This document shows, piece after piece, positions 4,983 to 30,952 of a stretch of 32,000 nucleotides of DNA (position 1 is the stretch's first letter; each line of letters begins with the position of its first letter). The translations under genes and the position numbers were made by a program. The stretch lies in contig NZ_OZ017288.1 of the NCBI RefSeq assembly GCF_963967315.1, positions 480,001 through 512,000 on the forward strand. Reading direction: 5' to 3'. The notes under the pieces are model-generated. The model did not search any database and was not told where the DNA came from. It saw only the letters and a list, made by a program, of their open reading frames with translations. Source of the stretch: Candidatus Minimicrobia sp. QA0096 (GTDB lineage: Bacteria > Patescibacteriota > Saccharimonadia > Saccharimonadales > Saccharimonadaceae).

Positions 4983-7097
4983 ATGAATATACGTAAGACT
5001 CTAAGTAATATAAATCTTAAACGAGCGCTACTTTTTACTGCAGTATTTGTAAGTGTCGTTTACATACTAGTTTTTGTAATTTTCGCTACGCTTGCGGCAT
5101 TAGGAAACGGCTTAGCTATGGATTCGTATGCAGCCAATGGAACTTTCCAATTATACAACCCGCTCCGTCGCCTATTGGACGGTGAAGTTCTGGCACGAGA
5201 TTTCCCATTCTTTCACGGAGTCGGAGTTCCACTTCTTCATTTTCCATTATTTTATATTATGGGACACAATTTATTCGCCGTGGAAGTTGCAAAATTGTTA
5301 GTATCGCCAATATTATTCCTCGTTTCGTCCTTTTTCCTGTTTTGGGCTTATTTTAGAAATGTTAAAAAATCCATCTTCGCAACCAGCATATTCACAATAA
5401 TCTCTATTGACGCTATTGACGCTATTTGGGCAGGCAATTCTCTTCTCGGTCTCAGGACAACATTTCCGTTTATCGCTACGGCTTTCATGTTATGGCGTCC
5501 AAATTGGCAAATGACTATTGGCAAAAATAAAATTAACCTCTATTATCCTATTTTATATACAATTATGGGGCTTTCCGTCGCGTGCGGCACCGAACAAGGA
5601 CTAGCCTTTATTCTTGCTTACGTTATCATTAAAGCCATTCGATACATTCGCTCAAAAGAAACTACAAAGAAAAAGATAATGATGTTTTTCGGAGAGTTGT
5701 TTGGTGTGGCAATTGCAGTTTACGCCGTATTATCAATTATGACGCTCGGTCATGCACACGACGCGCTTCGCTACGCATTGATTGAAGTTCCTAAAGACCA
5801 AGGGTGGTATTTTGGGGCTCCTCCAAATAGTTTTCTGCAATTAAATACTCTTGACCAGCTCGTCACAAAAAGAATGTTACTTTATATGTTACCTGTTATG
5901 ATAGGTGGAGTTGTTGCGTATATAATAAGCATAAAGAAAAAGATATTATCCAAAAAAGAATTTTCCACCTTTTCTATATTATTACTGTATGGAATTATAG
6001 TGTTCGCCGTCTCCATAACTGGCTACTGGGCGCCTGGCGCGCAACTTATACCATTAGAAAGAGCTGCGGGATCTATTCTTGTAATGGTCTTAATTTACGC
6101 GGCGGATAAAATAATCCGAACAAAGAAGCCGAACGTTAATGCTATAAATAAGAAAATTTCGTTTATAGCATTCGGATTACTACTCGGCTGCGTAGTTGCT
6201 ATTGGATACAACACGGCAATATTCCTGCAAAAAATCAGCTGGATGCCAGTAAAACACATTGTCACCGAATCAAGGAAGGCTAGACATTCTACTGACGACT
6301 CTGAATACGTGAGCGTTGCGTGGAAAAAGCGATTAGAGGCTTTTGCGCCGTACATTAAAAATGGTGCTAGTATCTGGTCTACTTATACCAGCGTTTACGA
6401 CTCTATTCACAAGCAGAAAAACGGATCTTCGGGAGGTGAAGACTACATTATACATGCATTAGGTCCTGATAGAAGAGATAAATATACTGAAGATTTTATA
6501 GAACAGAAACCCGATTACGTCATAACATTAAATCCGTCATATTTCGTTTACGAAGAATGGCTATGGTCGCGTCATTGGCAATTTTACAAAGAACTTTTGA
6601 ATAATTATACCGTAATTGCGACAAATGATTCTCACGTATTATGGAAACGCCAATCCGATAGCGCAAACCAAAAAACCACGATACACCCAGAACGTCGCGT
6701 GCAAAAATCTTCAAATGGAGATTACGTCATTAATGCCGACACTGGCAATAATATTAGAGTGTTTGAGATATCTGTGCGTTACAAGGCAAAAAGTATCTTA
6801 CCTATGACCTCTAAGTTGCCGAGATATCTATTAGAAATATCTGGATCGTCGCTACAGGAATATCCAATATCACTGCCACCGTATAGCACTAGTTGGAGTT
6901 TTCCAATAGCACTAGGACCAAACGACTCATCTGTACGAATCTCACCTAAAGCCTACAGTTTGATACCGGGAGTTTCGTTCGAAATACAAGACATATCTTA
7001 CCGCGAGATGCCTGTTAGAGAAGATAACTTATATATCTATAAGAGTAACTTCTGCCTACATAACGCCGATAAATGCACAGAAACTAATAAACACTAA
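4983..7097 (+). CDS. Large polytopic membrane protein with a ~285-aa C-terminal non-membrane domain; possible GT-C-type glycosyltransferase or polymerase
   Basis: 704 aa. Many hydrophobic helices span roughly aa 15-416. An acidic/aromatic first loop (RRLLDGEVLARDFPFFHG) resembles GT-C loop-1 motifs. The remainder (DNA ~6240-7097) is hydrophilic. The functional call is inference. Confidence 0.45.
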   Translation: MNIRKTLSNINLKRALLFTAVFVSVVYILVFVIFATLAALGNGLAMDSYAANGTFQLYNPLRRLLDGEVLARDFPFFHGVGVPLLHFPLFYIMGHNLFAVEVAKLLVSPILFLVSSFFLFWAYFRNVKKSIFATSIFTIISIDAIDAIWAGNSLLGLRTTFPFIATAFMLWRPNWQMTIGKNKINLYYPILYTIMGLSVACGTEQGLAFILAYVIIKAIRYIRSKETTKKKIMMFFGELFGVAIAVYAVLSIMTLGHAHDALRYALIEVPKDQGWYFGAPPNSFLQLNTLDQLVTKRMLLYMLPVMIGGVVAYIISIKKKILSKKEFSTFSILLLYGIIVFAVSITGYWAPGAQLIPLERAAGSILVMVLIYAADKIIRTKKPNVNAINKKISFIAFGLLLGCVVAIGYNTAIFLQKISWMPVKHIVTESRKARHSTDDSEYVSVAWKKRLEAFAPYIKNGASIWSTYTSVYDSIHKQKNGSSGGEDYIIHALGPDRRDKYTEDFIEQKPDYVITLNPSYFVYEEWLWSRHWQFYKELLNNYTVIATNDSHVLWKRQSDSANQKTTIHPERRVQKSSNGDYVINADTGNNIRVFEISVRYKAKSILPMTSKLPRYLLEISGSSLQEYPISLPPYSTSWSFPIALGPNDSSVRISPKAYSLIPGVSFEIQDISYREMPVREDNLYIYKSNFCLHNADKCTETNKH

Positions 7098-8942: not shown

Positions 8943-10050
8943 ATATCCTCCTCAATTCCTCAAAAGCATCATAAATATTATCTAATTTTCCGCCCATAAT
9001 ACAAATATATCCATCGTTGCCAAAGTCATTTCTGAACAATATCGGACGACTGTCATCGTCTTCACTCTTCACTAAAACCGTCTTCACTTCAACGATAGAT
9101 TCACGATATTTCATATTTTTCAAGGCTGGAATAAACCTCACAACATCATTATACATCTGCCTATAGTTTGATTTAAAGGGGCGATTTTTCAAATATTCAT
9201 GAGTTTTGATACGCTCGGCGCTAGTATTTTCATCATCAATCCACGATTCATGTGGCGTGTAACGAACGTGTGAAAGAGTATATAAATTCTTCGAAGGAAA
9301 TGGCATAATCGAGAAAAACGGACCATCCATCACTGTTATGCTAAAGTCCTTAAGCTGCTGAGGTAGCTCAACAAGACACATCTCGGTAATTTCATGTTTA
9401 AGTCCAACTAGCGGTAATCCAGATGCACGATGTAGCGTATTAATATTTGAGTAAGTACAGTTTAAAACAAAATCCGCTTCATAACTATCACGATCAGTAA
9501 CAACATTTATTTTACCCGCGCCGCCAGCAGGCAATTCAATTTTACTGACAGATTCTCCAGTATGAATACTAATGCCCTTATATTTATTAATGCGCTCTAC
9601 CAAAAGCTCTCTTAGCTTTCGTGAATTGAACGCGTATTCTTTAACCTTAAAAACCTCTTCAATCAACGACGGATTAAACATTTTTTCTATATCATGCGGA
9701 GCACGCTCAATTTCAGAACCAATCTTCTCGCAAAAATGTTCGAATTGCTTAGCGTTAACCTTTGAAAGATGCTTAGCAATTCCATAATATTTCTCAAAAT
9801 TAGATACTACAGCTGGACCGTATTCATCAACAAAAACTGGAAAGTTAACCGCTGAACGAAACCCAGTCAAAACGCTACGAGGATAATGATATCCATTATG
9901 GATGCGCGCCTGATTCACATAAGAGGCTCTATCCATCAACGCAGTTTCTTTCTCGATAATAATTATATTGTCTACACCAAGTTCTTCGTGCAGATATAGT
10001 GCTATCCTTAGCCCATAAAATCCACCGCCAATAATAACTGTACTATTCAT
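8920..10050 (-). CDS. FAD-dependent oxidoreductase (DAO/LhgO-like Rossmann flavoprotein)
   Basis: N-terminal VIIGGGFYGLRIALYL...IIIEK beta-alpha-beta FAD motif, followed by ASYVNQARIHNGYHY, which resembles the S-x-x-N-S-G-V-I-H-x-G-x-Y-Y signature of DAO-family enzymes. 376 aa. Confidence 0.7.
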   Translation of the reverse strand: MNSTVIIGGGFYGLRIALYLHEELGVDNIIIIEKETALMDRASYVNQARIHNGYHYPRSVLTGFRSAVNFPVFVDEYGPAVVSNFEKYYGIAKHLSKVNAKQFEHFCEKIGSEIERAPHDIEKMFNPSLIEEVFKVKEYAFNSRKLRELLVERINKYKGISIHTGESVSKIELPAGGAGKINVVTDRDSYEADFVLNCTYSNINTLHRASGLPLVGLKHEITEMCLVELPQQLKDFSITVMDGPFFSIMPFPSKNLYTLSHVRYTPHESWIDDENTSAERIKTHEYLKNRPFKSNYRQMYNDVVRFIPALKNMKYRESIVEVKTVLVKSEDDDSRPILFRNDFGNDGYICIMGGKLDNIYDAFEELRRIYGQEKAN

Positions 10051-11416
10051 ACTTCACCGTCCTTTTTACTACATAATCAGCCCACAACCCAATCAACATA
10101 TATACGAACAATAGTAGAGGTATGTAGAATATAATGCCGTTTATGTGAGCGTGCGGCAATGCGTGCCCCGGCATAAGAGCAAGCCAACAAAAAGCTCCAA
10201 TAACAGAGAAATTCATAGACCAAAGAAAAGGTCTGCTGTATTTCTTACTAATGATCTTTCTGGAGCTAAGAATAATCAAATACCCAAGAATAGTCCAGAA
10301 TAGAATAGACTGCACAAACTCGCCAAACATACCATTAATATGTACAGGCAAAGTAATTGCTGGAAGTAGCAAATAATTGACGACATTTACAATAATATAC
10401 TTATATGTTTTTCCGCTATTATTAGCCATATTGTCCAGATTCACTATTTGATTTATGAAGTTGTAAGTTTCAGGTCGTAAGATTTTAAAGTTACCGACGG
10501 CGTATGCCCTCATAGAACGTATACCAGAAATTCCCCTATCTGACGCCCTGGCGTTTATAGCACTCGCGGCTTTATCGGACGACCCGTAATAATCAGTAAG
10601 CGATATAAAGTTTACCCAATAAGCACCAAAAAACGCAACAACCGTAGCAGCAAACACGGGCACTGCTTGCTTCCAAAGATTAATGATTTTCACGTTTTTA
10701 TAAACTAATTCAAAGAATACTACAGGAACTAATACAGATATAGCGATTGTCGATACGTATTCATATCCATTTAGTAGCTTGAGGAACATAGCTACAGATT
10801 CAATAATGTAAAATAGCCAAAGTTTTTTTGATTTCTTAAAATATTGATAGCCAACAAAAGATATTACAAACGGAGCTATCAACAGCGGTTCTATCCAATA
10901 TATATTGCGAGCATACCCAGCAATCCAAGGGCTAAACGCCAACATTACGGTGAAAACAGAAGCAGTAATTCCGCCAAACAACGCTCTTATTTTTTGAACG
11001 ACTAGAGCTAGTAAAAAGGCAGTAAGCACAGCCAGGAATATAGATACTCTTTTGATGTAAGCTGGGATTTTGGAGGCATCATTCGGAGATAATCCAGCTA
11101 TAGCCCTCGCCTGTAAACCGTATTGAGATACATAAGGTTTTACCTGAGACGGATTACAATCTTGGCTCATCATTATCTTATTGTAATCTTTACTGTCGGC
11201 TGCTATTAACGGACCTTTATAATCATATTTATTTTTGCAATAAGCAGTTTTCTCTATTATGGCAGACGAATCTTTCTGAAAACCGTCAAACCAGCCGTTC
11301 CATAGTCCTGTTCCAAAAAAATTACCAATAAATGATATTGATAATATAAACCAGACTACAAAAAAGAAAACTACCCCAGGTTTATTCTTACTCCACTCTT
11401 TCATTACAAATATCAT
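10043..11416 (-). CDS. Polytopic integral membrane protein (possible GT-C/polymerase-like), first gene of the 11416->7124 operon
   Basis: Hydrophobic helices throughout. The ORF-track start at 11530 would overlap the divergent gene at 11465 and its promoter. The internal ATGs at 11416 or 11404 are more plausible, and 11404 sits 10 nt downstream of a TGcTATTAT box. Confidence 0.5.
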   Translation of the reverse strand: MIFVMKEWSKNKPGVVFFFVVWFILSISFIGNFFGTGLWNGWFDGFQKDSSAIIEKTAYCKNKYDYKGPLIAADSKDYNKIMMSQDCNPSQVKPYVSQYGLQARAIAGLSPNDASKIPAYIKRVSIFLAVLTAFLLALVVQKIRALFGGITASVFTVMLAFSPWIAGYARNIYWIEPLLIAPFVISFVGYQYFKKSKKLWLFYIIESVAMFLKLLNGYEYVSTIAISVLVPVVFFELVYKNVKIINLWKQAVPVFAATVVAFFGAYWVNFISLTDYYGSSDKAASAINARASDRGISGIRSMRAYAVGNFKILRPETYNFINQIVNLDNMANNSGKTYKYIIVNVVNYLLLPAITLPVHINGMFGEFVQSILFWTILGYLIILSSRKIISKKYSRPFLWSMNFSVIGAFCWLALMPGHALPHAHINGIIFYIPLLLFVYMLIGLWADYVVKRTVKYE

Positions 11417-11423
11417 AATAGCA
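11415..11423 (-). promoter_or_regulatory. Extended -10-like TGcTATTAT 10 nt upstream of the ATG at 11404
   Basis: The minus strand reads gTGcTATTATgatatttgtaATG. It lies back to back with the plus-strand -10 at 11452. Confidence 0.3.
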
Positions 11424-11451
11424 CAAAATAGACTAAAGAAGCTACCTAGTC

Positions 11452-11457
11452 TATAAT
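11452..11457 (+). promoter_or_regulatory. TATAAT 7 nt upstream of the ATG at 11465
   Basis: tagtcTATAATctgaattATG with no Shine-Dalgarno. Confidence 0.45.
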
Positions 11458-11464
11458 CTGAATT

Positions 11465-13615
11465 ATGAATAAGAAAGATTGTGTATTGTCTATTATTATA
11501 ACCGCCCACCGCGAGGGTCTTGTTGCGCATAAGACTATGAAATCAGTCGAGCGTGCTGTAAAAAAAATTGAGGAAGCGTCCATACCTTATGAAGTGATAG
11601 TTTCTATAGACAGAGGTGATGATCAAACTATTAATTATTTCGATAATTATACTGGTCTACCTATACACGTATATCAATGGGATCATGGAGATCTTTCAAG
11701 TTCGCGAAATAGTGCCATAAAAAAAGCGCATGGCCAATTTGTTTCTTTTATCGACGCCGATGACTTAATGAGTGAAAATTGGCTGCACGACAGCGTTCAA
11801 TTGCTATTAAAAAAACCTTACGGGAAATATGTTGCCCACAGCGCTTATACTATAGAATTCGAGGGCGCGGACTCTATTGTCCAAAAAACTGGCTGCACCA
11901 CTAAAGACCAAGATATCTTATTAAGCGTTCTATCTGGACGCTGGAATTCCGTTATCATCGCGCCGATTACGCTTCTTAAAAAATTCCCGTATGCACCAAA
12001 TAGCCCAGGATATGGATATGAAGATTGGTACTTAAGTTGTTGCTTGATTGAAAATGGCGTAAAAAACATTCTCATTCCACAAACAGCAATATTTGTACGT
12101 CGTAAATCATCAGGATCAGAGTGGGCGCGCCAAAAAGCTAGTCGATCATTACTGCACGCACATCCAATATTTAAGCCGTCCAATTTTCGCTCTATAGATA
12201 TCAACAAAATTCGCGTTCCTCAATCAGAGCAGCACCGTCAAACAAAAAACACAATCAAAGAATTAATCATACGATCGCGCATACCGTTAGGATTGATCCG
12301 CCGACCCCTGGCTATAATACGCCGTGGACGCAATGCATTACTAAAACGACCAGCACATTCACAAATTGCAGAATCTATACCAAAATGGCTGAAAACAGAA
12401 TGGAAAGCTCTTCACTCAATAGAAAAAGAAATTTTTCCACCATCACCACTACCAAGCACATACCACACAATCACCGACGACCATTATCGAGTTGGTCTTG
12501 CGTATTGGGAAATATGTAAGGAATTACGAAGTGATAGCTATGATTACGCTCTATTTGTACCCTGGCTTAAGAGAGGCGGCGCAGATTTATTTGCCGTCAA
12601 TTACGCAAACACCGCGGCTTCAATAGGAAAGAAAGTGCTCGTTATCTCCACTAATGAAGTTCCCGCTGACTATTCAGAATGGAGGTCGCAGCTAGATAAG
12701 AAAATAGATTTCTTACAATTTGGGACAATAACTCGGTTCTTTAGTATTGACCAAAAATACAGATTGCTTGAACAATTGATCGAAAACACCAATATTAAAA
12801 CTTTACATATTCTTAATTCTGAGCTAGCTTATGATTTTGTACGTGATCACGAAACATACATAAAAGCTACCAACAAGCGAATAATAGCTACTGCATATAG
12901 TCAGAGTACTGATGAGACGGGACGAATTTTTGGATTTTCACACAGTCACATACCGCAGGTATATCAACTTCTTGATTTAATTACGACAGACAACGAAGCA
13001 GTAAAATCTATGTGGGTCAATGAATATGCATACGATCCTCAAAAAATAGTCGTACATCATCAACCACTGACAAAAAATCATTATCCTGTAGTAGACAAAT
13101 TACCGAATAGTCGTAGAATATTATGGGCTTCTCGATTGGCGCCAGAAAAATTGCCTAAATTAGTATCGGAAATTGCAGATCTTCTTCCTGAAGACGTTCA
13201 TATAGATATGTACGGAGATCCTTCACCAGAGTTCCCTGCAAGTAGCCTACCGCCGCATCCACGTGTTCATTATATCGGTGGATTTAACGGAGTAGCATCT
13301 TTGCCGGCTGAAAAATATGACGCTTTTCTATATACCTCACTTTTTGATGGTATGCCAAATACGCCAGTCGAGATAGCTTTACGCGGACTACCAATAGTTG
13401 CAGCTAGAGTTGGCGGGCTTCCTGACTTTATAGGTGAAAACGGCTTCATAGTTGACGATATCACTAATCCAAAAGCATATGCGAAATGTATTAAGCAGAC
13501 TCTGGATGATATAAAATCATCGTTCCATAAAGCCAAAAACTTGCGGGAGAAAGCATCCCGCGAGTTCTCGGAAGATTCGTTTATGGATGAAGTTAAGGAT
13601 ATGTTCTCAAATTAA
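11465..13615 (+). CDS. Bifunctional glycosyltransferase: N-terminal GT2 domain fused to a C-terminal GT4/GT1-like GT-B domain
   Basis: N-terminus LSIIITAHREG...FVSFIDADDL (GT-A fold with DXD). C-terminus RILWASRLAPEK...SLFDGMPNTPVEIALRGLPIVAARVGG (GT-B EX7E-like). About 110 aa of basic linker lies between them. 716 aa. Confidence 0.8.
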   Translation: MNKKDCVLSIIITAHREGLVAHKTMKSVERAVKKIEEASIPYEVIVSIDRGDDQTINYFDNYTGLPIHVYQWDHGDLSSSRNSAIKKAHGQFVSFIDADDLMSENWLHDSVQLLLKKPYGKYVAHSAYTIEFEGADSIVQKTGCTTKDQDILLSVLSGRWNSVIIAPITLLKKFPYAPNSPGYGYEDWYLSCCLIENGVKNILIPQTAIFVRRKSSGSEWARQKASRSLLHAHPIFKPSNFRSIDINKIRVPQSEQHRQTKNTIKELIIRSRIPLGLIRRPLAIIRRGRNALLKRPAHSQIAESIPKWLKTEWKALHSIEKEIFPPSPLPSTYHTITDDHYRVGLAYWEICKELRSDSYDYALFVPWLKRGGADLFAVNYANTAASIGKKVLVISTNEVPADYSEWRSQLDKKIDFLQFGTITRFFSIDQKYRLLEQLIENTNIKTLHILNSELAYDFVRDHETYIKATNKRIIATAYSQSTDETGRIFGFSHSHIPQVYQLLDLITTDNEAVKSMWVNEYAYDPQKIVVHHQPLTKNHYPVVDKLPNSRRILWASRLAPEKLPKLVSEIADLLPEDVHIDMYGDPSPEFPASSLPPHPRVHYIGGFNGVASLPAEKYDAFLYTSLFDGMPNTPVEIALRGLPIVAARVGGLPDFIGENGFIVDDITNPKAYAKCIKQTLDDIKSSFHKAKNLREKASREFSEDSFMDEVKDMFSN

Positions 13616-16279
13616 TTAAGCAGAAACCCTCATCTCAGTCTTCACCACCTCTTGTCCAGTTTCGAGGGGTGGTGTTTTGTAGTCTTGCCACCTTCTACCG
13701 TCAAATGTAGAGAAATATGCGTTATATGTACCTACTGGGAATTGACGAGTTGCTTTGAATTCTAACTCTTGATTTGACTGAATTGTTGATGGAGAAAGAC
13801 ATCCTAGATCGTAGTTTTGCCCGCTTTGGTTACGTAGGATTAGACAAGTGTACTCACTGGTTGTTATTGGTTGATTAGAGGAGTTTTTTAGTTTGAATGT
13901 AGTTGTGACTGAATCGCCAGAGCGAGGGTTAGCACTAGAGAACGTTATACCTTGAGTGAGTGTTAAGCTAGGAAGAACTGTGAAGGTGGTGCGAGAAGAT
14001 TCCTTTCCTGTAAGTCCTGGAGGATAAGCTCCTTCACGCCATACTCCATTGTCATAAAGCGAAAAGAACGCTTCATATTCACCAGGTTCATTAAACGTAC
14101 GACTCAGAGAGAAGCTTGATTGGCTCTTAGGTGGAATTCCACTCGTAGGCAAACATCCTAAGTCATAGTTGCCACCCTGCCGCCTGCGAATGATATAGCA
14201 TAGCTGCTGATTATGATTAGACACGCTAGAGCTAAGATTCTCTAACTTGAAAGTACCTGTCAGTTGCTCACCGACATGTGCAGTAGTGCTACTAATTGAT
14301 AGTCCTTCAGAAAGAACGACGTCAGGAAGAACCCTCATCTCAGTCTTCACCACCTCTTGTCCAGTTTCGAGGGGTGGTGTTTTGTAGTCTTGCCACCTTC
14401 TACCGTCAAATGTAGAGAAATATGCGTTATATGTACCTACTGGGAATTGACGAGTTGCTTTGAATTCTAACTCTTGATTTGACTGAATTGTTGATGGAGA
14501 AAGACATCCTAGATCGTAGTTTTGCCCGCTTTGGTTACGTAGGATTAGACAAGTGTACTCACTGGTTGTTATTGGTTGATTAGAGGAGTTTTTTAGTTTG
14601 AATGTAGTTGTGACTGAATCGCCAGAGCGAGGGTTAGCACTAGAGAACGTTATACCTTGAGTGAGTGTTAAGCTAGGAAGAACTGTGAAGGTGGTGCGAT
14701 TGCCAGCACTGGCGTCCGTAGCTACAGGATACTGAGCTTCTGTCCACGTCCTACCACCGTCAAGAGTCCCGCTAATTCTTGCTCGATACAGCCCTTCTTC
14801 ACGCGGTAAAAACTCTTTGTTGTAATTGTATACAGCGCCTGGAGATAATTGATTAACTGTATCAAAGACAACATCAGCGTTCTTTCCACTTGGACTTGTT
14901 ATAGCTAAGCCAAAGTAACCAAGATCAACAGGTTTGGCACTATTATTTTTTACCTGAAAACCTACGTTAACTGATTGATTTTTATGAATGCGCGAAATCT
15001 GTGTCGTGACGGCAGAAACTACTGTTGGAGACGATTGAACAAATGCTGCAACTTCACGAACATTTCCCGCTGAAGATTCTGGATAATTGTCGCTCCACCC
15101 ACTACCATCACGATAATTACTGATCCAAAACTTATAATCACCTTCTTTATTCAATCTAGTTGACGCTCGATAAGTATATGATTGCCACGGCTCAAGAACA
15201 ACGCGCTGACTGCCAAAATCGTAATTATTCGAATTGCTATCCCGACCTGCAATTACCATCACACCTAAGTCACGACGCTGGTTAGTGGAATTGCGAATAG
15301 TGAAAGATGCTGTTATTTCCATATTCGTAAACAATTTTGATCCAATTTTCTCCGTCTTTATGGATAATGGCGAATCAATTTTGACAGAATTCAACGGAGA
15401 ACCGAACCACTCATTGAAGAACCTCCAGAAGTTTCGATTGCCATAAGCTCCACAATGTGCAGTTCCCGCACCAGCGTCCAAAGCCCCTTGATTCGGCTGA
15501 TATGGCGTGTAGTTATACAGACTCGCGGTCGCTTGGTTCTCAATATATACCCAACTTCCGCCACAAGCTGCATCTGGATTGTATTGGATGTAGTTGGTTC
15601 GACCCGCCTTGTAACGATATTCATTTGGCCTATTCGCATAAAGTCGTAGTTGGCGCGCAGCCATACGCAACTGGTTGTATAGTCCAGCATATTCACTTGA
15701 ACAATTTGCAGTATTTCCTGGACCGTTGTCTGGGCAAGCAAATCCCATAGCATATTTATATTGACTCTTTAAAGGCCACGAGTCAGTAAACAAAGACCCC
15801 TGTTCCTTCTTCAATATCACTAACATAACCTGTGGGTTAATGCCAAATTCTTTTGACACATTCCAAATAATTTGTGCAGTAGATAATCCACCACTAAACC
15901 AGCCGCCGCCTTTTTCAAATGAGGTTTCTTTAGTGTTTGGATTCTCGTGATAATTACGCAGGCAAGCATACGGCGGACCATGCCAGCCGCGGTTAACAGC
16001 ATATTGCGCTCGCGTACCGCCACCATATTCAGACCGTCCAGCTCCCCATGTGTCACAGGCAGGAGTATGGTCGTTTATAAAATTCTGGATATCTTGAACG
16101 CTAGCAAATGTATTTGTATCATAAAAAACATTATCATCGATAATCCTACCAGCATTCCAAGGAGATAGCGCTCCAGTCCTCGGCCAAAAAATAAACCCTA
16201 AGACAATAACACTCACCATAGCTAACGTGCAGCTGACATATTTTAATCTCGTCCACTTCGTACGTCTTATTTCAATCAC
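13616..16279 (-). CDS. Secreted, N-terminally anchored protein: Cys-rich lysozyme-like (putative peptidoglycan hydrolase) head plus five ~115-aa CARDB/Ig-like repeats
   Basis: TM/signal anchor LKYVSCTLAMVSVIVLGFIFWP. The head contains GINPQVMLVILKKEQGSLFT (resembling the catalytic-Glu region of lysozyme-like folds) and 6 Cys. The repeats carry a G-x-x-V-T-x-x-F-x-L-K-N-x-S pattern. GTG start overlaps the upstream stop (GTGA), with AAGGAGAG Shine-Dalgarno. The enzymatic call is inference. Confidence 0.55.
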   Translation of the reverse strand: MIEIRRTKWTRLKYVSCTLAMVSVIVLGFIFWPRTGALSPWNAGRIIDDNVFYDTNTFASVQDIQNFINDHTPACDTWGAGRSEYGGGTRAQYAVNRGWHGPPYACLRNYHENPNTKETSFEKGGGWFSGGLSTAQIIWNVSKEFGINPQVMLVILKKEQGSLFTDSWPLKSQYKYAMGFACPDNGPGNTANCSSEYAGLYNQLRMAARQLRLYANRPNEYRYKAGRTNYIQYNPDAACGGSWVYIENQATASLYNYTPYQPNQGALDAGAGTAHCGAYGNRNFWRFFNEWFGSPLNSVKIDSPLSIKTEKIGSKLFTNMEITASFTIRNSTNQRRDLGVMVIAGRDSNSNNYDFGSQRVVLEPWQSYTYRASTRLNKEGDYKFWISNYRDGSGWSDNYPESSAGNVREVAAFVQSSPTVVSAVTTQISRIHKNQSVNVGFQVKNNSAKPVDLGYFGLAITSPSGKNADVVFDTVNQLSPGAVYNYNKEFLPREEGLYRARISGTLDGGRTWTEAQYPVATDASAGNRTTFTVLPSLTLTQGITFSSANPRSGDSVTTTFKLKNSSNQPITTSEYTCLILRNQSGQNYDLGCLSPSTIQSNQELEFKATRQFPVGTYNAYFSTFDGRRWQDYKTPPLETGQEVVKTEMRVLPDVVLSEGLSISSTTAHVGEQLTGTFKLENLSSSVSNHNQQLCYIIRRRQGGNYDLGCLPTSGIPPKSQSSFSLSRTFNEPGEYEAFFSLYDNGVWREGAYPPGLTGKESSRTTFTVLPSLTLTQGITFSSANPRSGDSVTTTFKLKNSSNQPITTSEYTCLILRNQSGQNYDLGCLSPSTIQSNQELEFKATRQFPVGTYNAYFSTFDGRRWQDYKTPPLETGQEVVKTEMRVSA
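13625..13994. repeat. Copy 1 of a 370-bp perfect direct repeat (encodes the C-terminal 'A' domain of the 887-aa protein)
   Basis: I compared it base by base with 14330-14699 (offset 705 bp) and saw no mismatch. The flanks diverge immediately (gaagat vs ttgcca on one side). Confidence 0.9.
14330..14699. repeat. Copy 2 of the 370-bp perfect direct repeat (encodes the internal 'A' domain)
   Basis: Identical to 13625-13994. The two copies are separated by 335 bp encoding a related but strongly diverged 'B' domain. Confidence 0.9.
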
Positions 16280-16860
16280 CGCAAACTCTCCTTACGGAAT
16301 GACGGATTATTCGAAGACTCTCCTGTATACAATTTTGATGAATAACTCACCTTTACCGATATATCTACCCCTGATGGCAATTCCGACAATGGTATCTCAA
16401 TCATATGACAACTCGTCGAACTTGGACCAGCAAATGAACTAGATTTACGAGAAATACTTCCGCCAGCCCAATACAGTGTAAATTCACAACTACCGCCGTT
16501 CTCAACAATGGAGTTAACCCCTCCGTCAATCTGTAAATATTGCTTATCCGCACTCAATCCATATCCGCTTACAATTGGAACTACTGATTTTTTTGACCCT
16601 GACGACTGCTGATCTCCAGTATTAATTGGTTTATCAGGACTATATCCATCGCGTTTTTCTGGCTTCGCGCTGTTGTCATCAACTTTCTTAGAGTCTTCTT
16701 TTTTATCTGTAGACTCTTTTACTACGGGATTATTAGAATCAGTATTGTTTTGTTGCGGCTTATAAATATACGCAACTGTAGCACACGCCACTAAAGCCAA
16801 AGCCAGCGTAGAAGCAAGTATAATTCTAGTTTTTTTCTTCATTTTTTGTTTGATTTTCAC
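16276..16860 (-). CDS. Small N-terminally anchored (possibly lipoprotein-like) orphan protein with a charged low-complexity linker and a ~100-aa C-terminal domain
   Basis: KKKTRIILASTLALALVAC hydrophobic anchor with a Cys, then a K/D/S/N-rich linker. The C-terminal domain has 2 Cys. GTG start at 16860 (ATG alternative 18 nt downstream). The stop overlaps the start of the 887-aa gene. Confidence 0.5.
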   Translation of the reverse strand: MKIKQKMKKKTRIILASTLALALVACATVAYIYKPQQNNTDSNNPVVKESTDKKEDSKKVDDNSAKPEKRDGYSPDKPINTGDQQSSGSKKSVVPIVSGYGLSADKQYLQIDGGVNSIVENGGSCEFTLYWAGGSISRKSSSFAGPSSTSCHMIEIPLSELPSGVDISVKVSYSSKLYTGESSNNPSFRKESLR

Positions 16861-23223: not shown

Positions 23224-23629
23224 TAAATTCAGGTTTCTCATTGTCGGCAGTACTAATACAGTACTAGATTTTGGCATACTTTTTAGCCTAACAATCTTTT
23301 TAAATATCCCAAAGGAGTTTGCTAATTTCATATCAACATTCGTTGCTTTTTTGTTCTCATTTTTTGCAAATAAAAAATATACTTTCAAGTCAACATCCCA
23401 AAACTTGAAAAAACAATTTCTTTTATTCGCCGCAGTTACACTATTTGGTTTATGGGTAATTCAGACAATTATCATCACTATTATCACACCGATATTTATA
23501 AACTTCGGATTAAATAAATCACTTGCTCTATTAATTAGCAAGCTAGCCGCCACGGTAGTCAGCCTCGTCTGGAATTACGTTCTATACTCCAGAATAGTCT
23601 TTAAAGACACTAAGAACTCTTCTGACTAA
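23195..23629 (+). CDS. GtrA-family small membrane protein (putative lipid-linked sugar translocase)
   Basis: KFRFLIVGSTNTVLDFGILF N-terminus and four hydrophobic helices. 144 aa. GAGGAG Shine-Dalgarno 4 nt upstream. It overlaps the upstream GT2 gene by 29 nt. Confidence 0.85.
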   Translation: MQEILKKHADKFRFLIVGSTNTVLDFGILFSLTIFLNIPKEFANFISTFVAFLFSFFANKKYTFKSTSQNLKKQFLLFAAVTLFGLWVIQTIIITIITPIFINFGLNKSLALLISKLAATVVSLVWNYVLYSRIVFKDTKNSSD

Positions 23630-24071
23630 TAATTAGCCGTCGTTCGCGACCTTCACCTTCAGAATGCGTATCAATATCACTATATTCACCAGCCAAGTGA
23701 TGCACCGTCCAGCGATCAGCAGCATTCAAATCCACTATCTTTGACTCGCCAGTTCGACGGACTTCCTCAATCCAACCGCGCGCCTTTTCGGCAATTTTTT
23801 CAGCGTGCTGCTTTTTATAGTCTGCAATGTCCAAATTAACTCGAACAGTTGACGCTTCTTTATGATGAAGAGCTGTCGACAAAAGGTTCTGAATACTGCG
23901 CAATGTTTCCGCATTTTTGCCGATTAAAATACTACTTCGCTCGCTATGCGGAATTGAAGCCACAACAATTCCATCTTCAATTTTTACTGAAACTTCCAGA
24001 TTCAAGTCAAAGAATGTTAGCAAATCCTCTAAATATTTTTTTACAAATTCAACTGTTTCAATTTGGTCCAT
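23610..24071 (-). CDS. jag: Jag/KhpB-type RNA-binding protein (KH + R3H domains, lacks the Jag_N domain)
   Basis: The C-terminus LNAADRWTVHHLAGEY...THSEGEGRERRLII is an R3H motif. It occupies the conserved position downstream of yidC. AAGGAGG Shine-Dalgarno 4 nt upstream. Confidence 0.85.
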   Translation of the reverse strand: MDQIETVEFVKKYLEDLLTFFDLNLEVSVKIEDGIVVASIPHSERSSILIGKNAETLRSIQNLLSTALHHKEASTVRVNLDIADYKKQHAEKIAEKARGWIEEVRRTGESKIVDLNAADRWTVHHLAGEYSDIDTHSEGEGRERRLIISQKSS

Positions 24072-24080
24072 AAATCCTCC

Positions 24081-24989
24081 TTAATCCTTAGCCTTGATTC
24101 GAGTTACCCTGGCCTCTGTAGCCTTTTTAACACGTTTGTCAATTTTTGTCGATGCTTTAGATTTTTTATCTGCAATTTCTTGCATTTCTTTAGAGTCTTG
24201 CTTGAAGATAATATAATTCTGGAGATATCCCACGGCGCTAGCTGTCGTCAAATAAAGCGCCAAAGCTGCCGGCAAATACACAATCACGAAGAACATCATT
24301 ACTGGCATAAATTTCATCATTTTTCGCGTCATAATAGCATTTACTTCTGCCTGATCTGCCTCTTTTCCATCACCAGCCTCAGCTAGAATATCTCGCAACT
24401 TACGATTGCTGTCAGATTGGGGTGACAATTGTTTTGAAGTTAAATATTGCAAATATGCCGCAACTGCCGCCAAAATAACCAAGCCAATAACAATTCCATT
24501 CTTTGATATTGCGTGTTGTGTCAAATCTATAATTCCCAGGAAATTCTGATTAAATTGATCTGGATTATTTACTAGATTATTAGCAACCGGCAGATTTTTC
24601 ATAAAATCATAAACATATTTTCCTAAGTCGGCGCGGCTAGAAACGAAAATCTGCACCACTCGATACATCGCAATCAAAATCGGCAACTGAATAATCATAA
24701 CACCAATTGAGCCAAAGGCACTGACGTTGTGTTTTTTATAAAGCTCCATCATCGCTAGGTTACGCATTTGCGGATTTTTTGCGTATTGTTTTTTAAGTTT
24801 TGCTAGCTCTGGCTGCATTTTACGCATGGCTTTTGCTTGGTGAAGTTGCTTTTTAATTAGCGGCCAAAGTAAAAGTCTTACAATAATCGTAAAGATAATA
24901 ACGCTAACACCAAAATCCGGAATCAGACTATAAATAGCCATTAGCAAATTTAAAATCGGTCGAACAATAAACTCATCAAAAAAACTCAT
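24081..24989 (-). CDS. yidC: Membrane protein insertase YidC (short, Gram-positive type)
   Basis: GVSVIIFTIIVRLLLWPL...KMQPELAKLKKQY motifs. Conserved position in rnpA-yidC-jag synteny. 302 aa. Confidence 0.95.
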   Translation of the reverse strand: MSFFDEFIVRPILNLLMAIYSLIPDFGVSVIIFTIIVRLLLWPLIKKQLHQAKAMRKMQPELAKLKKQYAKNPQMRNLAMMELYKKHNVSAFGSIGVMIIQLPILIAMYRVVQIFVSSRADLGKYVYDFMKNLPVANNLVNNPDQFNQNFLGIIDLTQHAISKNGIVIGLVILAAVAAYLQYLTSKQLSPQSDSNRKLRDILAEAGDGKEADQAEVNAIMTRKMMKFMPVMMFFVIVYLPAALALYLTTASAVGYLQNYIIFKQDSKEMQEIADKKSKASTKIDKRVKKATEARVTRIKAKD

Positions 24990-25013: not shown

Positions 25014-25361
25014 CTATTTATACAGTTGAGCTTGAGAGAAAAGATTCTTTATTGTCTGTTTTAGATCTTTATGTGGCATCGATAAAACTTCCGCCGAAAA
25101 TATAATAACAGCCACATCTTGGTCATTTTTCATATTAGGCAGCTCCAGGCGAATAATTTCATAAACACGTCGACGTATACGATTCCGACGCACCGCTGAT
25201 TTTAGAACTTTTTTACTAACAACAACCGCAAACCTGCTGTGGCTTCGATATGGGTTCTTCACGTATTTTATCGTGGCTATAGACGAACGAACCGCTTGTC
25301 CATTTTTATAGACAAACTTAAGACTGCCATGACCATGAAACCGATTACATTGTTGTAACAT
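25014..25361 (-). CDS. rnpA: Ribonuclease P protein component
   Basis: Basic 115-aa protein with the RNR-type motif (AVRRNRIRRRVYE), located between rpmH and yidC. Confidence 0.9.
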   Translation of the reverse strand: MLQQCNRFHGHGSLKFVYKNGQAVRSSIATIKYVKNPYRSHSRFAVVVSKKVLKSAVRRNRIRRRVYEIIRLELPNMKNDQDVAVIIFSAEVLSMPHKDLKQTIKNLFSQAQLYK

Positions 25362-25781: not shown

Positions 25782-27137
25782 GTGGATAGTCATGCGGTTT
25801 GGCAGGGTGTTTTAGGTGAGATTGAAGTAACTGTATCGTCTTCGTCGTTTACTGCGTGGTTTAAAAATACCAAATTGGAAATAATCTCCGAAAAAGAAGT
25901 TCTTATAATTGCGCCGAATATTTTTGCTAGAACTCAACTTGAAAAGCGATTTCACCCGCAAATATTAGAAGCCTTGGCTCACAATGGCATTAATGCTCCG
26001 TCTATTTCTTATAACGTCGAATCTAGCAATAAAAAACCGCGCGTTAATCGTGAAGTTGATAAAAGCGGACAACAAGAAACAGCGAAGCCTCTGATTTTAC
26101 CATCGAGGAAATCTCATTCTAGTAATCTTAATCCCAGGTATACCTTTGACAACTTCATCGTTGGCTCAAGTAATGATCTTGCCTATGCCGCTTGCCAAGC
26201 CGTCGCCGCACATCCAGGAGAAAAATATAATCCGCTCTATCTTTACGGAGGGTCTGGACTTGGTAAAACTCACTTAATGCAGGCAGTTGGAAATGAGATA
26301 ATTAAAAAGCAGCCATCGGCGCGAGTGCTTTACATTACTACAGAAACGTTTGTTAATGAATTTCTGGATTCTATTCGTTTCAAGAAAAAAGGTTTTTCTG
26401 ATAAATATCGCAATGTCGATGTATTGATTGTCGATGATATGCAATTTATCGCTGGGAAAGAAAAAACTCAGGACGAATTTTTCCATACATTTAACGATCT
26501 TCATCAAAACAACAAGCAAATCATTATTAGCTCAGATAAACCGCCAAAAAGTATTCCTACTCTAACCGATCGTTTGCGTAGTCGATTTGAATGGGGTATG
26601 GCGATCGATATTCAGATGCCCGATTATGAAACTCGTTGTGCTATCGTTAAAGCAAAAGCTGAACTCAGCAACACTGAACTAGATTCCGATGTCGTAGAAT
26701 ATCTGGCGACCAACTTTAAGACGAACATTCGCGAGTTGGAAGGCGCTTTGAATAGACTGCTTGCTTATGCGGAAATGCAGAATTTCACTCCTGATTTAGC
26801 GGCGGCTGAAGGAATCTTGGGAGATATTAAACGCAATAGACCACAACATATAACCGCCAAACAAATAATTGATAAGACGGCGCGCTATTATAATATTGAC
26901 GTAAAAGATATGTGCTCATCCAGGCGAGATAAATTTATCGCGATGCCAAGGCAAATTGCGATGTTTCTTCTGCGTAGTGAGCTGAAAATGAGTTTTCCGA
27001 AAATTGCCCAAGAGCTTGGACGAAAAGACCACACTACCGCTATGCATTCAATTGAAAAAATCACCAAGGAAAGCCTTACTAATGTCAGTATTCGCGAGCA
27101 AATTAACGACATTAAGGATAAATTATATGTTCATTAA
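25782..27137 (+). CDS. dnaA: Chromosomal replication initiator protein DnaA
   Basis: AAA+ Walker A GGSGLGKTHL, Walker B VLIVDDMQF and a C-terminal DNA-binding domain (GRKDHTTAMHS). GTG start with GAGGGAG Shine-Dalgarno 8 nt upstream. Confidence 0.98.
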   Translation: MDSHAVWQGVLGEIEVTVSSSSFTAWFKNTKLEIISEKEVLIIAPNIFARTQLEKRFHPQILEALAHNGINAPSISYNVESSNKKPRVNREVDKSGQQETAKPLILPSRKSHSSNLNPRYTFDNFIVGSSNDLAYAACQAVAAHPGEKYNPLYLYGGSGLGKTHLMQAVGNEIIKKQPSARVLYITTETFVNEFLDSIRFKKKGFSDKYRNVDVLIVDDMQFIAGKEKTQDEFFHTFNDLHQNNKQIIISSDKPPKSIPTLTDRLRSRFEWGMAIDIQMPDYETRCAIVKAKAELSNTELDSDVVEYLATNFKTNIRELEGALNRLLAYAEMQNFTPDLAAAEGILGDIKRNRPQHITAKQIIDKTARYYNIDVKDMCSSRRDKFIAMPRQIAMFLLRSELKMSFPKIAQELGRKDHTTAMHSIEKITKESLTNVSIREQINDIKDKLYVH

Positions 27138-27383: not shown

Positions 27384-28481
27384 ATGAAAGTATCAGTCAC
27401 TCAAGAAAAACTCGCAAAAGCACTTAATCTAATCAAAGATATCGCATCGAGCCGTAATGAACTGCCGATATTAAATAATATTTTACTTCGCACCGATGGA
27501 GGAAGATTATTGATTGCTGGAACGAATTTGGAAATTGCTTCTACTCAATACATTGGTGCGAAAATTGAAGATCATGGATCTATTACAATCCCTGCCCGAT
27601 TGGTATCAGAATTCATTACAAACTTACCAAGCGGTCCAGTGGAACTTGAAACCAAAAACGAACATTTGCATATAACTTCAGGAAAATTCTCATCAGTTAT
27701 CAATGGCGTAGTAGCTGACGAATATCCTGAGCTGCCTACAATTGACGAAAAGACCGCCATGCAATATGAAATTGATGTTGAGGATTTAAAGAAAGCCATA
27801 GTCCAAACGAAGTTGGCTGTTAGCTCTGACGTTACGCGAGCGGTGCTCACGGGAGTTTATTGGCATAATTATGAAGGATCGCTATACTTAGCCGCTACTG
27901 ATGGCTACAGGCTGGCAGAAAAGCGTCTGATAAAGTCGGATAATGAAGTTTCAGCGATCATTCCTGCGTCTACATTGGCGGAAGTCAGTAAGAGCGTCGG
28001 CGATGAGAAGAAAATTACGGTTCTTTTTGACGATTCTCAAGTTTGTTTTAAGACGGGAGATATGGAAATTGTTAGTCGATTAATTGACGGGAAATTCCCT
28101 GATTATCGCCAATTGATTCCAGCGACTGCCGAAACTGAGATCGTTATTAAGAAGTCTGATTTTAGTCGAGTTACGAAAATTGCGGCGTTATTTGCGCGTG
28201 AATCTGGTGGTGGAATTACAATTACCGCATCAGAGGAAAATTCTCTGCTTTCTATTCATTCGATTGCGTCTGAACTTGGTGAGAACACCTCAGAGGCAAC
28301 AGCCAAAATATCCGCAGATGGTCAAGTTACTCTCAATTCGCGCTACCTAACAGAGGTTTTGAATATTATTGACGCGGATGAAATTGTATTCTCATTTAAT
28401 GGTAAATTGTCGCCGTGCGTAATTCGCGAGCAAGTAAAAAATCCTGATTATACACACATTATCATGCCGCTTAAGAGTTAG
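27384..28481 (+). CDS. dnaN: DNA polymerase III beta sliding clamp
   Basis: Typical N-terminus MKVSVTQEKLAKALNLI...PILNNILL. 365 aa. Directly downstream of dnaA. AAGGAAAG Shine-Dalgarno. Confidence 0.97.
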   Translation: MKVSVTQEKLAKALNLIKDIASSRNELPILNNILLRTDGGRLLIAGTNLEIASTQYIGAKIEDHGSITIPARLVSEFITNLPSGPVELETKNEHLHITSGKFSSVINGVVADEYPELPTIDEKTAMQYEIDVEDLKKAIVQTKLAVSSDVTRAVLTGVYWHNYEGSLYLAATDGYRLAEKRLIKSDNEVSAIIPASTLAEVSKSVGDEKKITVLFDDSQVCFKTGDMEIVSRLIDGKFPDYRQLIPATAETEIVIKKSDFSRVTKIAALFARESGGGITITASEENSLLSIHSIASELGENTSEATAKISADGQVTLNSRYLTEVLNIIDADEIVFSFNGKLSPCVIREQVKNPDYTHIIMPLKS

Positions 28482-29123: not shown

Positions 29124-29735
29124 TTACTCCGTAAATGTATTAGCGTAGTTTCTAAATGTGATATTTAGTTTTGACGGGTCAAATCCCTGCTCTTTAATCT
29201 TATTGAGGGCAGCATTTCTATATCCTTCTATAGTATCGATTTCTACGATAACTCCATTCTTATGACTAGGGTCTGCCTTATATCCAATTGAATAAATTAA
29301 GTTTTTTATTGGTAATTTTTTAATTATAGGATTGGCGTCTTCTAGTTTTTTTTGTTCATTAGCAAGTCTGTCCGTTGTAGCTCTGTCTATTTCTGATGTT
29401 TTGGAGGAAGACTGCAATTCTTTAATAGCCTCCTCTGTTGTGGGTGTGAGTGCAAAAATTATCCTTAACGGATTACCTTTTTTTACTTCAACATTAATAT
29501 TCTCATCTTTAAAGCCACTTCTTGATGCTTTAAAATTGTACGTTCCTGGTCTTAAATATACGACTTGCGAGCCGATAAATTTTTGACTACCAGTAGTAAT
29601 TTCAGCTTTATCGGGCGAGGTTAGTAGGTAAACCGGAGTGGTGTCATATCTATTTACGTAGGTTATGACGCCATATACTAATGTACTGGCTGATAATAAT
29701 ATTAATATACTGCTAATTATTTTTTTATTCATCAT
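29124..29735 (-). CDS. N-terminally anchored orphan protein with a PEGA-like domain
   Basis: TM anchor IISSILILLSASTLVYGVI. VVYLRPGTYNFKASRSGFKDENINVEVKKG resembles the PEGA motif. The start overlaps the upstream stop (ATGA). Confidence 0.55.
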   Translation of the reverse strand: MMNKKIISSILILLSASTLVYGVITYVNRYDTTPVYLLTSPDKAEITTGSQKFIGSQVVYLRPGTYNFKASRSGFKDENINVEVKKGNPLRIIFALTPTTEEAIKELQSSSKTSEIDRATTDRLANEQKKLEDANPIIKKLPIKNLIYSIGYKADPSHKNGVIVEIDTIEGYRNAALNKIKEQGFDPSKLNITFRNYANTFTE

Positions 29736-30952
29736 TTCTTCCTAAACCAAGTTACGCTTGGTGATGTTAAGCTCTCGTTGCCTGCTTTTGGGGCGTATTC
29801 ACACAATGAGGCGGATGCTATATTTGAGTCAAATCCTTCTATATTACCAACAAAAACAAATGTATGTCCTGGACTATGGGCGACATCACCGGGTTTAAGG
29901 TCTGCTACGTTGATCGAGCTACCGTTACCAAGAGTTTGCCAGTTGGCTTCTGCCCACGCTCTCTGTACGCCAGTCGGCCCAGCTTTACCGCCCTCACCTC
30001 CGTAGTTGTAATTTTTATCAAACCCACTGTCGTTCAAAATCGTTGTTACAAACGCGCCACAATCGACACCGCCGCCATAACACGTACCGCCAGTAAATCT
30101 GTTCTCACTTTTTGCCTTTTCTATAGCTTTTTCGTAATCAGGTTTTTTATCTGTACGAACCCTTTTTTCTGGCCAGGCATAACGTTTGACATAGTCGATA
30201 AAGTCGCCGCCACCGTTTGATGAAGAGCATCCTCCTCCACTTCCGCCTGTACCATTAAATCTTTCATAGATTTTTTGTGCGGCGGCACCGCGTATATTTT
30301 TAACGTCATCTTTTGTCATGGCTGATTTTTCAAAATCGTCATGCCAAAAAACAGTGGCGTCATCAACTGTCTTCAGGGTTTTTAATAATTCCCATGAATT
30401 TGAAGCGGTACCAAATCCACGAGCAGTAACGGGTCTTTCTGTCCCCTCTTGCACTAAATACTCTAATTCGAAGATCAATAGCTTGTCGTTGTCTTCTACC
30501 GGAATAGAATCGACCATACCCTTGTCGTTAGGCGCGCCACCATACTCTTGGCTGTAATATTTTTTTAACTCAGACGGTATTTTATTAGCTATAAGCGTTC
30601 GCCTTCCGAACGTCCACTGGGCAAGTCCCCAACCTCCAGACCCCCATCCTTGACCTACTTCGTGTCTGGTAGGACTAAATCCTGACTCTGCCTGAATATT
30701 AGCCATCACGCCAGCTGTTTGTTCGGCGCTTAATCCTGCGTTGCGTAGATATCCCCAAATCTTTTCTTGGTTATCAGATCCTGATACTCCATTAGAAGAT
30801 GATCCGGAACAAGTTGTTGAATCATTTTCTTTATACCAAAGAATATCGTTTGTTACATATGAATCGGGATATCCTGCCGCCAAAGATACTGGCTGCATAG
30901 TAATAGCAAAAGATATAGCAAAGCAAAGAGCGATAGACAACTTTTTATACAT
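29732..30952 (-). CDS. Secreted two-domain peptidoglycan hydrolase: N-terminal phage-tail-lysozyme-type muramidase plus C-terminal NlpC/P60- or CHAP-like cysteine peptidase (CwlT-like architecture)
   Basis: Signal peptide MYKKLSIALCFAISFAITMQPVSLAA. IWGYLRNAGLSAEQTAGVMANIQAESGF...GWGLAQWT matches the phage tail lysozyme family. A Gly-rich linker follows. The C-terminus has GGVDCGAFVTT (Cys nucleophile context) and AHSPGHTFVFVG (His). Confidence 0.75.
   Translation of the reverse strand: MYKKLSIALCFAISFAITMQPVSLAAGYPDSYVTNDILWYKENDSTTCSGSSSNGVSGSDNQEKIWGYLRNAGLSAEQTAGVMANIQAESGFSPTRHEVGQGWGSGGWGLAQWTFGRRTLIANKIPSELKKYYSQEYGGAPNDKGMVDSIPVEDNDKLLIFELEYLVQEGTERPVTARGFGTASNSWELLKTLKTVDDATVFWHDDFEKSAMTKDDVKNIRGAAAQKIYERFNGTGGSGGGCSSSNGGGDFIDYVKRYAWPEKRVRTDKKPDYEKAIEKAKSENRFTGGTCYGGGVDCGAFVTTILNDSGFDKNYNYGGEGGKAGPTGVQRAWAEANWQTLGNGSSINVADLKPGDVAHSPGHTFVFVGNIEGFDSNIASASLCEYAPKAGNESLTSPSVTWFRKK

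Follow-up and report, generated by a model that had tools for sequence, protein, structure and literature searches.

Probable gene conversion between two identical immunoglobulin-like domains of a predicted surface protein in human oral Saccharibacteria

Concerted evolution by RecA-dependent gene conversion is well known from bacterial paralogues such as tufA/tufB, the rRNA operons and the opa and pil families. In the Periscope Proteins (e.g., Rib/alpha C, SasG/Aap and the SHIRT arrays of Sgo_0707), surface proteins carry domain repeats that are identical at the DNA level and whose number changes through recombination (Whelan et al. 2021, PMC8201768). Here, we examined a stretch of 32,000 nucleotides from Candidatus Minimicrobia sp. 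QA0096 (contig NZ_OZ017288.1, positions 480,001 to 512,000; hereafter the window), in which a gene for an 887-aa protein holds two base-identical copies of one immunoglobulin-like (Ig-like) domain, A, parted by a diverged homologous domain, B. The relatives of this gene are found in Candidatus Nanosynbacter HMT-352-like organisms, i.e., human oral Saccharibacteria (TM7). From the comparison of homologous sequences, we consider it highly probable that the third and fifth domains (d3 and d5, the two A copies) are kept identical by ongoing intragenic gene conversion and thus evolve in concert. Gene conversion is familiar in bacterial surface proteins and seems to be undescribed in Saccharibacteria; our literature search on gene conversion in Saccharibacteria, or on the protein itself, returned nothing relevant. 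Throughout, W denotes the window, L001-L068 denote homologous loci, and P0053 and similar numbers denote homologous proteins.

The locus resembles concerted evolution of the tufA/tufB type in that its paralogous units are identical within a genome and diverged between genomes, with mosaic tracts, variable tract ends and exchange in both directions. It differs in that both units, spaced by 335 nt, belong to a single polypeptide as two of its domains, and in that the tract is limited to ~360-370 nt by the loss of flanking homology. With the Periscope Proteins it shares folded, beta-rich domains and near-100% identical DNA repeats in a bacterial envelope protein predicted to be exported, as well as an intragenic recombination that homogenises units and can drop them in frame, with candidate length variants on record; relatives in the window family even hold two to three adjacent identical copies (L067, L068). 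However, the two identical copies of the window gene are parted by B, and adjacent domains are never identical. Moreover, the protein has no C-terminal wall anchor and its repeats, instead of building a stalk that projects an N-terminal head, make up the free C-terminus, its length variation is seen in short-read assemblies only, and the organism is an ultrasmall epibiont from the candidate phyla radiation (CPR). On three counts (i.e., the non-adjacent copies, the lack of a C-terminal anchor or stalk, and the unconfirmed length variation), we do not regard the window gene as a member of that class. The arrangement also recalls the G5-E repeats of SasG/Aap, in which copies of one domain alternate with an unlike module; here, A and B are 39% identical. 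Neighbouring domains in multidomain proteins are held to a rule of below ~40% identity (cited in PMC8201768), and by analogy an identity of 39% would limit misfolding between neighbours, though the parallel is one of resemblance only. SasG, for its part, has many identical repeats of the entire G5-E unit, whereas here B is single and only A is homogenised.

Identity of the two copies and evidence for gene conversion

The initial annotation had described a base-perfect 370-bp direct repeat within the 887-aa gene, and both a script comparison and a repeat search bore this out. Positions 13625-13994 and 14330-14699 agree base for base over exactly 370 nt at an offset of 705 nt; the match extends by 0 nt on either side, and the identity of the flanks falls to 10-55% per 20 nt. 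By chance, an exact 370-mer pair in 32 kb has an expectation of ~1e-211. The pair, reported by the repeat search as 300 nt at a spacing of 705, is the sole substantial repeat of the 32-kb window, and the same search found no third copy of the A domain within the window. Both copies lie inside a single open reading frame (ORF) with a GTG start, and the period corresponds to 235 codons, so that it is in frame, as had been claimed. They encode residues 528-650 and 763-885 (RTTFTVLPSLTLTQG...KTEMRV). The placement of the repeat start 7 nt past the stop codon also holds, given that, in coordinate order, the stop codon (13616-13618) and the Ser-Ala codons (13619-13624) precede the first base of the repeat at 13625, the protein ending in ..EMRVSA. 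The AlphaFold2 model and the domain comparisons further agree with the earlier description of Cys-pair beta-sandwich A domains in the order D1-D2-A-B-A. B, which had been described as homologous but strongly diverged, shares 39% protein identity and 45.6% DNA identity with A, with third codon positions at 35% (saturated); the upstream domains D1 and D2 align with A only in part, at 31-34% identity, and are without the Cys pair.

Across genomes, the two copies change together. Of the 99 sites at which the gene differs between W and L001, 10 fall in A1 (d3), and the same 10, shifted by 705, recur in A2 (d5). Over a 355-nt core, 0 mismatches separate the two copies in 25/32 two-copy loci, while the median number of mismatches between genomes for the same segment is 9 for the W type (n = 12) and 26 for the X type (n = 15). 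The X type has ~86 variable sites in the repeat core, and d3 equals d5 at all of them in 12/15 genomes, the exceptions being L035 (few differences at the 3' end), L012 (one difference) and L039 (mosaic). The initial annotation had called for a comparison of synonymous divergence (dS) between the repeats; for the A domain, we found a dS of 0 within genomes versus 0.1-0.4 between strains, with purifying selection between strains (a ratio of nonsynonymous to synonymous divergence, dN/dS or omega, of 0.04-0.15). B shows ordinary orthologue evolution between strains and was never homogenised with A.

The extent of the identical tracts varies between lineages. In gene coordinates, they span 1581-1950, 1591-1951, 1592-1955 and 1627-1956, and their ends across lineages fall within 1581-1592 on the 5' side (~11 nt) and 1946-1956 on the 3' side (~10 nt). 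Partly homogenised alleles occur as well: L006, a cultured strain, has 9 core mismatches, all located 5' of a 158-nt identical 3' stretch, the 24 mismatches of L039 all lie within the 5' half, and L029, L031, L035 and L040 keep 2-5 residual differences between copies.

The A domain exists in two allele classes, X and Y, which are ~70% identical, and three homologues (L003, L008 and P0153) are heterotypic, carrying X-B-Y. In L003, the X-B-Y array is followed by a Y-type tail and a Y-type downstream gene, the latter being the GT2+GT4 glycosyltransferase gene, whose two haplotypes act as flanking markers. Its close relative L013, whose flanks are 93-97% identical to those of L003, is X-B-X and yet retains a Y-like tail (TN) and the Y-type downstream gene, from which we conclude that d5 was overwritten by d3 in an L003-like allele. 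A d5-like type occupies both positions in W and L002, and a d3-type occupies both in L012 and L013; conversion therefore goes in either direction. Together, the co-varying copies, the partial tracts, the heterotypic alleles and the converted derivative with its flanking markers strongly support ongoing gene conversion, one of three causes that had been proposed for the repeat.

Mechanistically, recurrent non-reciprocal homologous recombination between d3 and d5 would keep their DNA identical, such that a new mutation or an imported allele in one copy would soon be erased or copied into the other. The tract would halt where homology ends, i.e., at the linker ahead of the domain and, at the opposite end, where B begins or at the stop codon, and such confinement by the limits of homology would explain why the diverged B is never homogenised. 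In the model, RTTFTVL, the seven residues with which the repeat opens, make up a strand immediately before the fifth domain proper, which suggests that structural domain and recombination unit are shifted against each other by one strand. The enzymology is presumably RecA-dependent. A shorter form of 652 aa with a single A, described below, may be the reciprocal or single-strand-annealing product of the same recombination, with the two-A form held by selection.

Several considerations weigh against gene conversion as stated here, or soften it. Most of the assemblies are short-read, where bulge removal by metaSPAdes may wipe out a few real differences; the one round of Pilon applied to the long-read contigs may do the same, so that for some genomes 'exactly zero' is perhaps overstated. 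Several loci may be redundant records of one sample, and the counts are accordingly not all independent. Metagenomic mosaics such as L039 and L029 could be chimeric contigs of co-resident strains. Conversion is deduced from patterns in the sequences rather than from events seen directly, and the copies could be made alike by repeated unequal crossing-over as well; the partial tracts speak for conversion while leaving room for such a contribution.

Length variants and alternative explanations

The initial annotation had also proposed in-frame length variation in steps of 705 bp. The contracted form was found, in short-read assemblies only, and the expanded form was not. Proteins of 652 aa (887 minus 235) are present in all three close species clusters, and the corresponding D1-D2-A-stop arrangement occurs in 8 of ~41 assembled loci (about a fifth), with both flanks present in 7. 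These forms come mostly from assemblies of 4-16x coverage, and two A copies are present in each of the 3 long-read contigs, in the cultured strains and in the complete genomes. A low-coverage assembler can skip the A-B loop as a legitimate path through the graph, and we therefore treat the 652-aa forms as database candidates. No expanded A-B-A-B-A protein (1122 aa) was seen among 120 matches and ~120 cluster members. We also looked for chimeric X/Y single-copy alleles, which would prove deletion, and found none that was convincing, L043 and L055 having only isolated Y-like residues. One of the eight single-A loci (L044:1501-3552) has lost its stop codon and runs on for 31 extra residues into the convergent gene (683 aa); as the contig has 6x coverage, this loss may be a sequencing error.

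Across the family, a 100-aa segment is repeated at 100% identity within the protein in 10 of the 120 best homologues. The DNA was checked for three of them (L066, L067 and L068; Table 1), whose proteins are only 34-39% identical to that of the window. Protein lengths in the family cluster at ~640, 760, 880 and 990 aa, equivalent to 3, 4, 5 and 6 Ig-like domains. On these comparisons, recombination in Saccharibacteria appears generally to add, remove and homogenise domains of this gene.

Among the alternatives to gene conversion, an assembly artefact would require that a repeat node was collapsed or traversed twice, so that the second copy, or its perfect identity, is a product of the assembler and the genome has one copy or two that clearly differ. 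Such an origin would fit the frequent contig breaks at the repeat edges, the way short-read assemblers collapse near-identical bubbles, and an exact look-up that found no identical protein on record for that of the window. Many short-read contigs do end exactly at the repeat edges, and L024 and L057 overlap by 55 nt, a k-mer length; we take such ends as the sign of a real repeat longer than k. Three contigs from Flye assemblies of human saliva (L040, L051 and L053, from two samples; PromethION reads averaging 13 kb, one Pilon round; PMC7782811) are all A-B-A; between the copies, L040 shows 2 substitutions and a homopolymer indel, and L051 and L053 show no differences. Cultured-strain assemblies at ~1000-3000x coverage (e.g., TM7-087, L005) are A-B-A too, as is the complete chromosome CP128407.1 (L012), with a 356-nt perfect run and one mismatch near the 3' end, and the layout recurs in >30 independent assemblies. 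Furthermore, the assemblies keep real differences between copies, ranging from 2 to 106 mismatches in L031, L029, L006, L039, L003 and L008, and B, which is under purifying selection, is found nowhere but between two A copies. We thus reject an artefact, another of the proposed causes, as the main one, its probability being very small; bubble collapsing or polishing could hide a handful of real differences in some assemblies, which leaves this conclusion unchanged.

The remaining proposed cause, a very recent duplication of an A-B unit in the window lineage whose copies have not yet diverged, is even less credible. It would account for the zero differences over 370 nt in the window, but the orthologues at 99, 78, 73 and 63% identity are every one exactly 887 aa long, and W, L001, L002 and L004 each have a perfect 364-370-nt repeat at offset 705, even though synonymous sites elsewhere in the gene are saturated between these lineages (the dN/dS of the N-terminal part was left out for W versus L004 because of an indel offset). 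Since the A-B-A layout is kept in orthologues with saturated synonymous divergence, we reject this explanation. A recent A-B duplication would also leave two B copies, whereas there is a single B, which shares 39% identity with A; some alleles are heterotypic (X-B-Y), their copies being 70% identical; and strain-specific substitutions are common to both copies. As far as these comparisons reach, the five-domain layout is old and the identity of its copies is young. Least credible of all, with a probability close to nil, is that protein-level selection alone preserves the identity, or that one copy serves as template for a diversity-generating retroelement (DGR) or as a silent cassette. DGRs are known in CPR bacteria, and A is a plausible binding domain. 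However, the synonymous sites are identical as well, with a dS of 0 within and 0.1-0.4 between strains, which speaks against selection on the protein as the sole cause. Between the copies there are no adenine-specific mismatches and indeed no mismatches at all, no reverse transcriptase was found among the 27 window ORFs scanned with Pfam (ORFs beyond ~28.5 kb were partly scanned), no third copy lies in the window, and one locus per genome matches the A-domain pattern; DGR or cassette variation was rejected on these grounds. More room remains for a programmed switch of length or valency of the Periscope kind, in which the identity itself is selected and recombination toggles between the two-A (887 aa) and one-A (652 aa) forms, altering how far an envelope enzyme or adhesin reaches or how avidly it binds, and thereby affecting host attachment or phage or immune evasion. 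The occurrence of forms exactly 235 codons shorter in all three close clusters, the recurrence of base-perfect domain repeats in the distant L066, L067 and L068, the stepwise family lengths (3 to 6 domains) and the fact that the class is established in other bacteria (PMC8201768) all favour such a switch. We nevertheless judge it unlikely, because the long-read contigs, cultured strains and complete genomes all have two copies, the one-copy forms derive from short-read assemblies only, the expanded 1122-aa form was not seen, the repeats are placed not between an anchor and a functional head but at the C-terminus, which is free, and neutral conversion alone accounts for the identity. Gene conversion hence remains our preferred explanation.

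Apart from these alternatives, the A repeat is a recurrent breakpoint in Saccharibacteria assemblies, with broken contigs in L019-L025, L046-L050, L057 and L065. In the 647-aa P0136 (RYC74755.1, Candidatus Nanosynsacchari sp. TM7_G1_3_12Alb), which is named 'putative glycosyltransferase EpsJ' and has one A unit only, the N-terminus of the neighbouring GT2 is fused to the protein from residue ~130; this is probably a mis-join in a draft assembly.

Predicted protein and genomic neighbourhood

The 887-aa protein yielded only sub-threshold noise in Pfam and NCBIfam, and searches of the PDB by sequence and by profile gave no meaningful match, the sole one being spurious (a sodium channel, E 4.5). 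Residues 36-300 are modelled as a confident helical fold (AlphaFold2, predicted local distance difference test score, pLDDT, of 91.8), in which E159 and six cysteines are invariant across 53 homologues, the Glu being at a helix end. The Foldseek neighbours of this region in the PDB and BFVD are nearly all lysozyme-like glycosidases (GH73 LytB/AtlE/SagB, g-type lysozyme, MltE/MltC, SLT and tail lysins), none of them significant (best E of 0.06 in the PDB and 0.03 in BFVD; template-modelling (TM) scores of 0.2-0.4). The likeness to lysozyme-like glycosidases would consist of the predicted helical fold and the invariant Glu at a helix end, whereas the window protein has neither a sequence-family match nor a significant structural match to them. 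Judging by the model, the N-terminal domain is probably a lysozyme-like glycan hydrolase, and its substrate could be peptidoglycan (the cell's own or that of its host) or a surface glycan made by the locus. In one homologue, P0053 (815 aa), a stretch of 215 residues from the N-terminal lysozyme-like domain occurs twice in exact form, at a distance of 543 residues, which could be a true duplication or fusion, or a mis-assembly.

Residues 520-887 are modelled as three all-beta sandwich domains (AlphaFold2 pLDDT 95.6). In Foldseek, the A and B domains match MG-domain arrays, the FdeC adhesin and an archaeal S-layer protein at E of ~1e-8 to 1e-6; in Pfam, they give only sub-threshold matches (MG2, DUF1573 and MOV-10_Ig-like), and a CARDB annotation is present on some homologues. 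The alignment consensus contains repeated N.S...G...R/D..G.N.D...W motifs, which count among the evidence for D1 and D2. The sole hydrophobic segment of the protein is N-terminal, a C-terminal anchor being absent, and distant homologues have classic signal-peptide ends (..AHA|VS); the N-terminus accordingly looks like a signal peptide or a signal anchor. Such a signal or anchor, together with the six invariant cysteines, fits a plausible location at the cell surface. The protein may be an exported lysozyme-like glycan hydrolase whose distal Ig-like domains would bind a ligand in the cell envelope.

Table 1 Features of the repeat gene and its neighbours in the window, and repeats in three distant homologous loci.
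Feature	Position	Strand	Basis
Gene for the 887-aa, predicted exported protein (signal or anchor, probably lysozyme-like domain, D1-D2-A-B-A)	13616..16279	-	ORF listing, 887-aa orthologues, conserved synteny
Copy A2 (fifth domain, d5), residues 763-885, ending two codons before the stop	13625..13994	-	Exact identity; beta-sandwich model
Spacer domain B, residues 651-762, 335 nt, homologous to A	13995..14329	-	Protein and DNA comparison
Copy A1 (third domain, d3), residues 528-650	14330..14699	-	Exact identity
Ig-like domains D1 (residues 301-420) and D2 (residues 421-527)	14700..15379	-	Comparison to A; alignment consensus
N-terminal globular domain, residues 36-300, probably lysozyme-like	15380..16174	-	AlphaFold2, invariant columns, Foldseek
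N-terminal hydrophobic segment, putative signal peptide or signal anchor	16175..16279	-	Sequence VSCTLAMVSVIVLGFIFWP
Upstream 194-aa partner gene with lipobox-like LALVAC	16276..16860	-	ORF listing; conserved pairing
GT2+GT4 glycosyltransferase gene, convergent, its stop abutting that of the repeat gene	11465..13615	+	Pfam; haplotype matrix
A-B-A repeat, period 699 nt	L066:4552-5550		Identical run of at least 300 nt
Three tandem identical copies, period 351 nt	L067:3441-4442		Identical run of at least 300 nt
Two tandem copies, period 357 nt	L068:2250-2906		Identical run of at least 300 nt

The gene is part of a large cluster for surface glycans, which includes GT2 and GT4 glycosyltransferases, a nucleotidyl transferase, a Wzm/Wzt-type ABC exporter and GtrA. 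At its start, the 887-aa gene is overlapped by the stop of the 194-aa gene, whose product combines a Ser/Asp/Lys-rich linker with the LALVAC motif and has no Pfam match. A partner gene of 182-197 aa is located directly upstream in every relative examined (L001-L004 and L066-L068), and the pair of small and large genes within a glycosyltransferase cluster is found in distant relatives as well. Two further genes of the glycan cluster are without a Pfam match, one encoding 704 aa (4983-7097, + strand; E <= 1e-4) and one encoding a hydrophobic protein of 495 aa (10043-11530, - strand; E <= 0.01). The repeat gene lies ~10 kb from rnpA-yidC-jag and dnaA-dnaN, and hence near the likely origin; the genes of that region are a jag/KhpB-like gene (23610-24071), yidC (24081-24989), rnpA (25014-25361), dnaA (25782-27137) and dnaN (27384-28481). 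On CP128407.1, the orthologue is at 841.7-850.4 kb of 856 kb. The window also encodes a second, unrelated predicted cell-wall hydrolase of 406 aa (29732-30952, - strand) with a Phage_lysozyme2 domain (PF18013).

In the sister species (oral taxon 488 group), the GT2+GT4 gene exists as two old haplotypes with ~65% DNA identity, and the D2-d3-B part likewise forms two old haplotypes, with ~65% DNA identity or synonymously saturated. The two-haplotype region, orthologous to window positions 11465-15019, was compared in L002, L003, L007-L010, L012 and L013, and the 1.5 kb upstream of it are 83-95% identical among these loci. Recombinants between the haplotypes include L003 (X-B-Y with a Y-type downstream gene), L008 (X-B-Y with an X-type one) and L013 (X-B-X with a Y-type one). 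By its sequence pattern, the region resembles a hypervariable surface-glycan locus that is shuffled between strains.

Implications for Saccharibacteria

Saccharibacteria are obligate epibionts whose host-range determinants are largely unknown, and their strain-level host range shifts faster than their phylogeny (PMC9040727). The locus is a candidate envelope or host-interaction factor. The mechanism itself is textbook, and what makes the locus valuable is the system, not a new principle: across dozens of genomes with unconverted, half-converted and converted alleles, it is an unusually clean natural record of gene conversion, and it offers a measure of homologous recombination in a reduced CPR genome. 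As a warning for users of such data, the locus is mis-assembled or broken in many metagenome-assembled genomes, and calls of 652 aa versus 887 aa need long reads.

A more far-reaching idea, which we regard as rather improbable, is that the repeat is a recombinational switch conserved across Saccharibacteria, presenting one or two distal Ig-like domains (up to three in relatives) and swapping A alleles between strains. If this were true, the epibiont would be able to tune its binding or cutting of the envelope of its actinobacterial host, and the locus would be a fast-evolving determinant of host range, i.e., a CPR version of the Periscope Proteins with the variable array at the tip rather than in the stalk.

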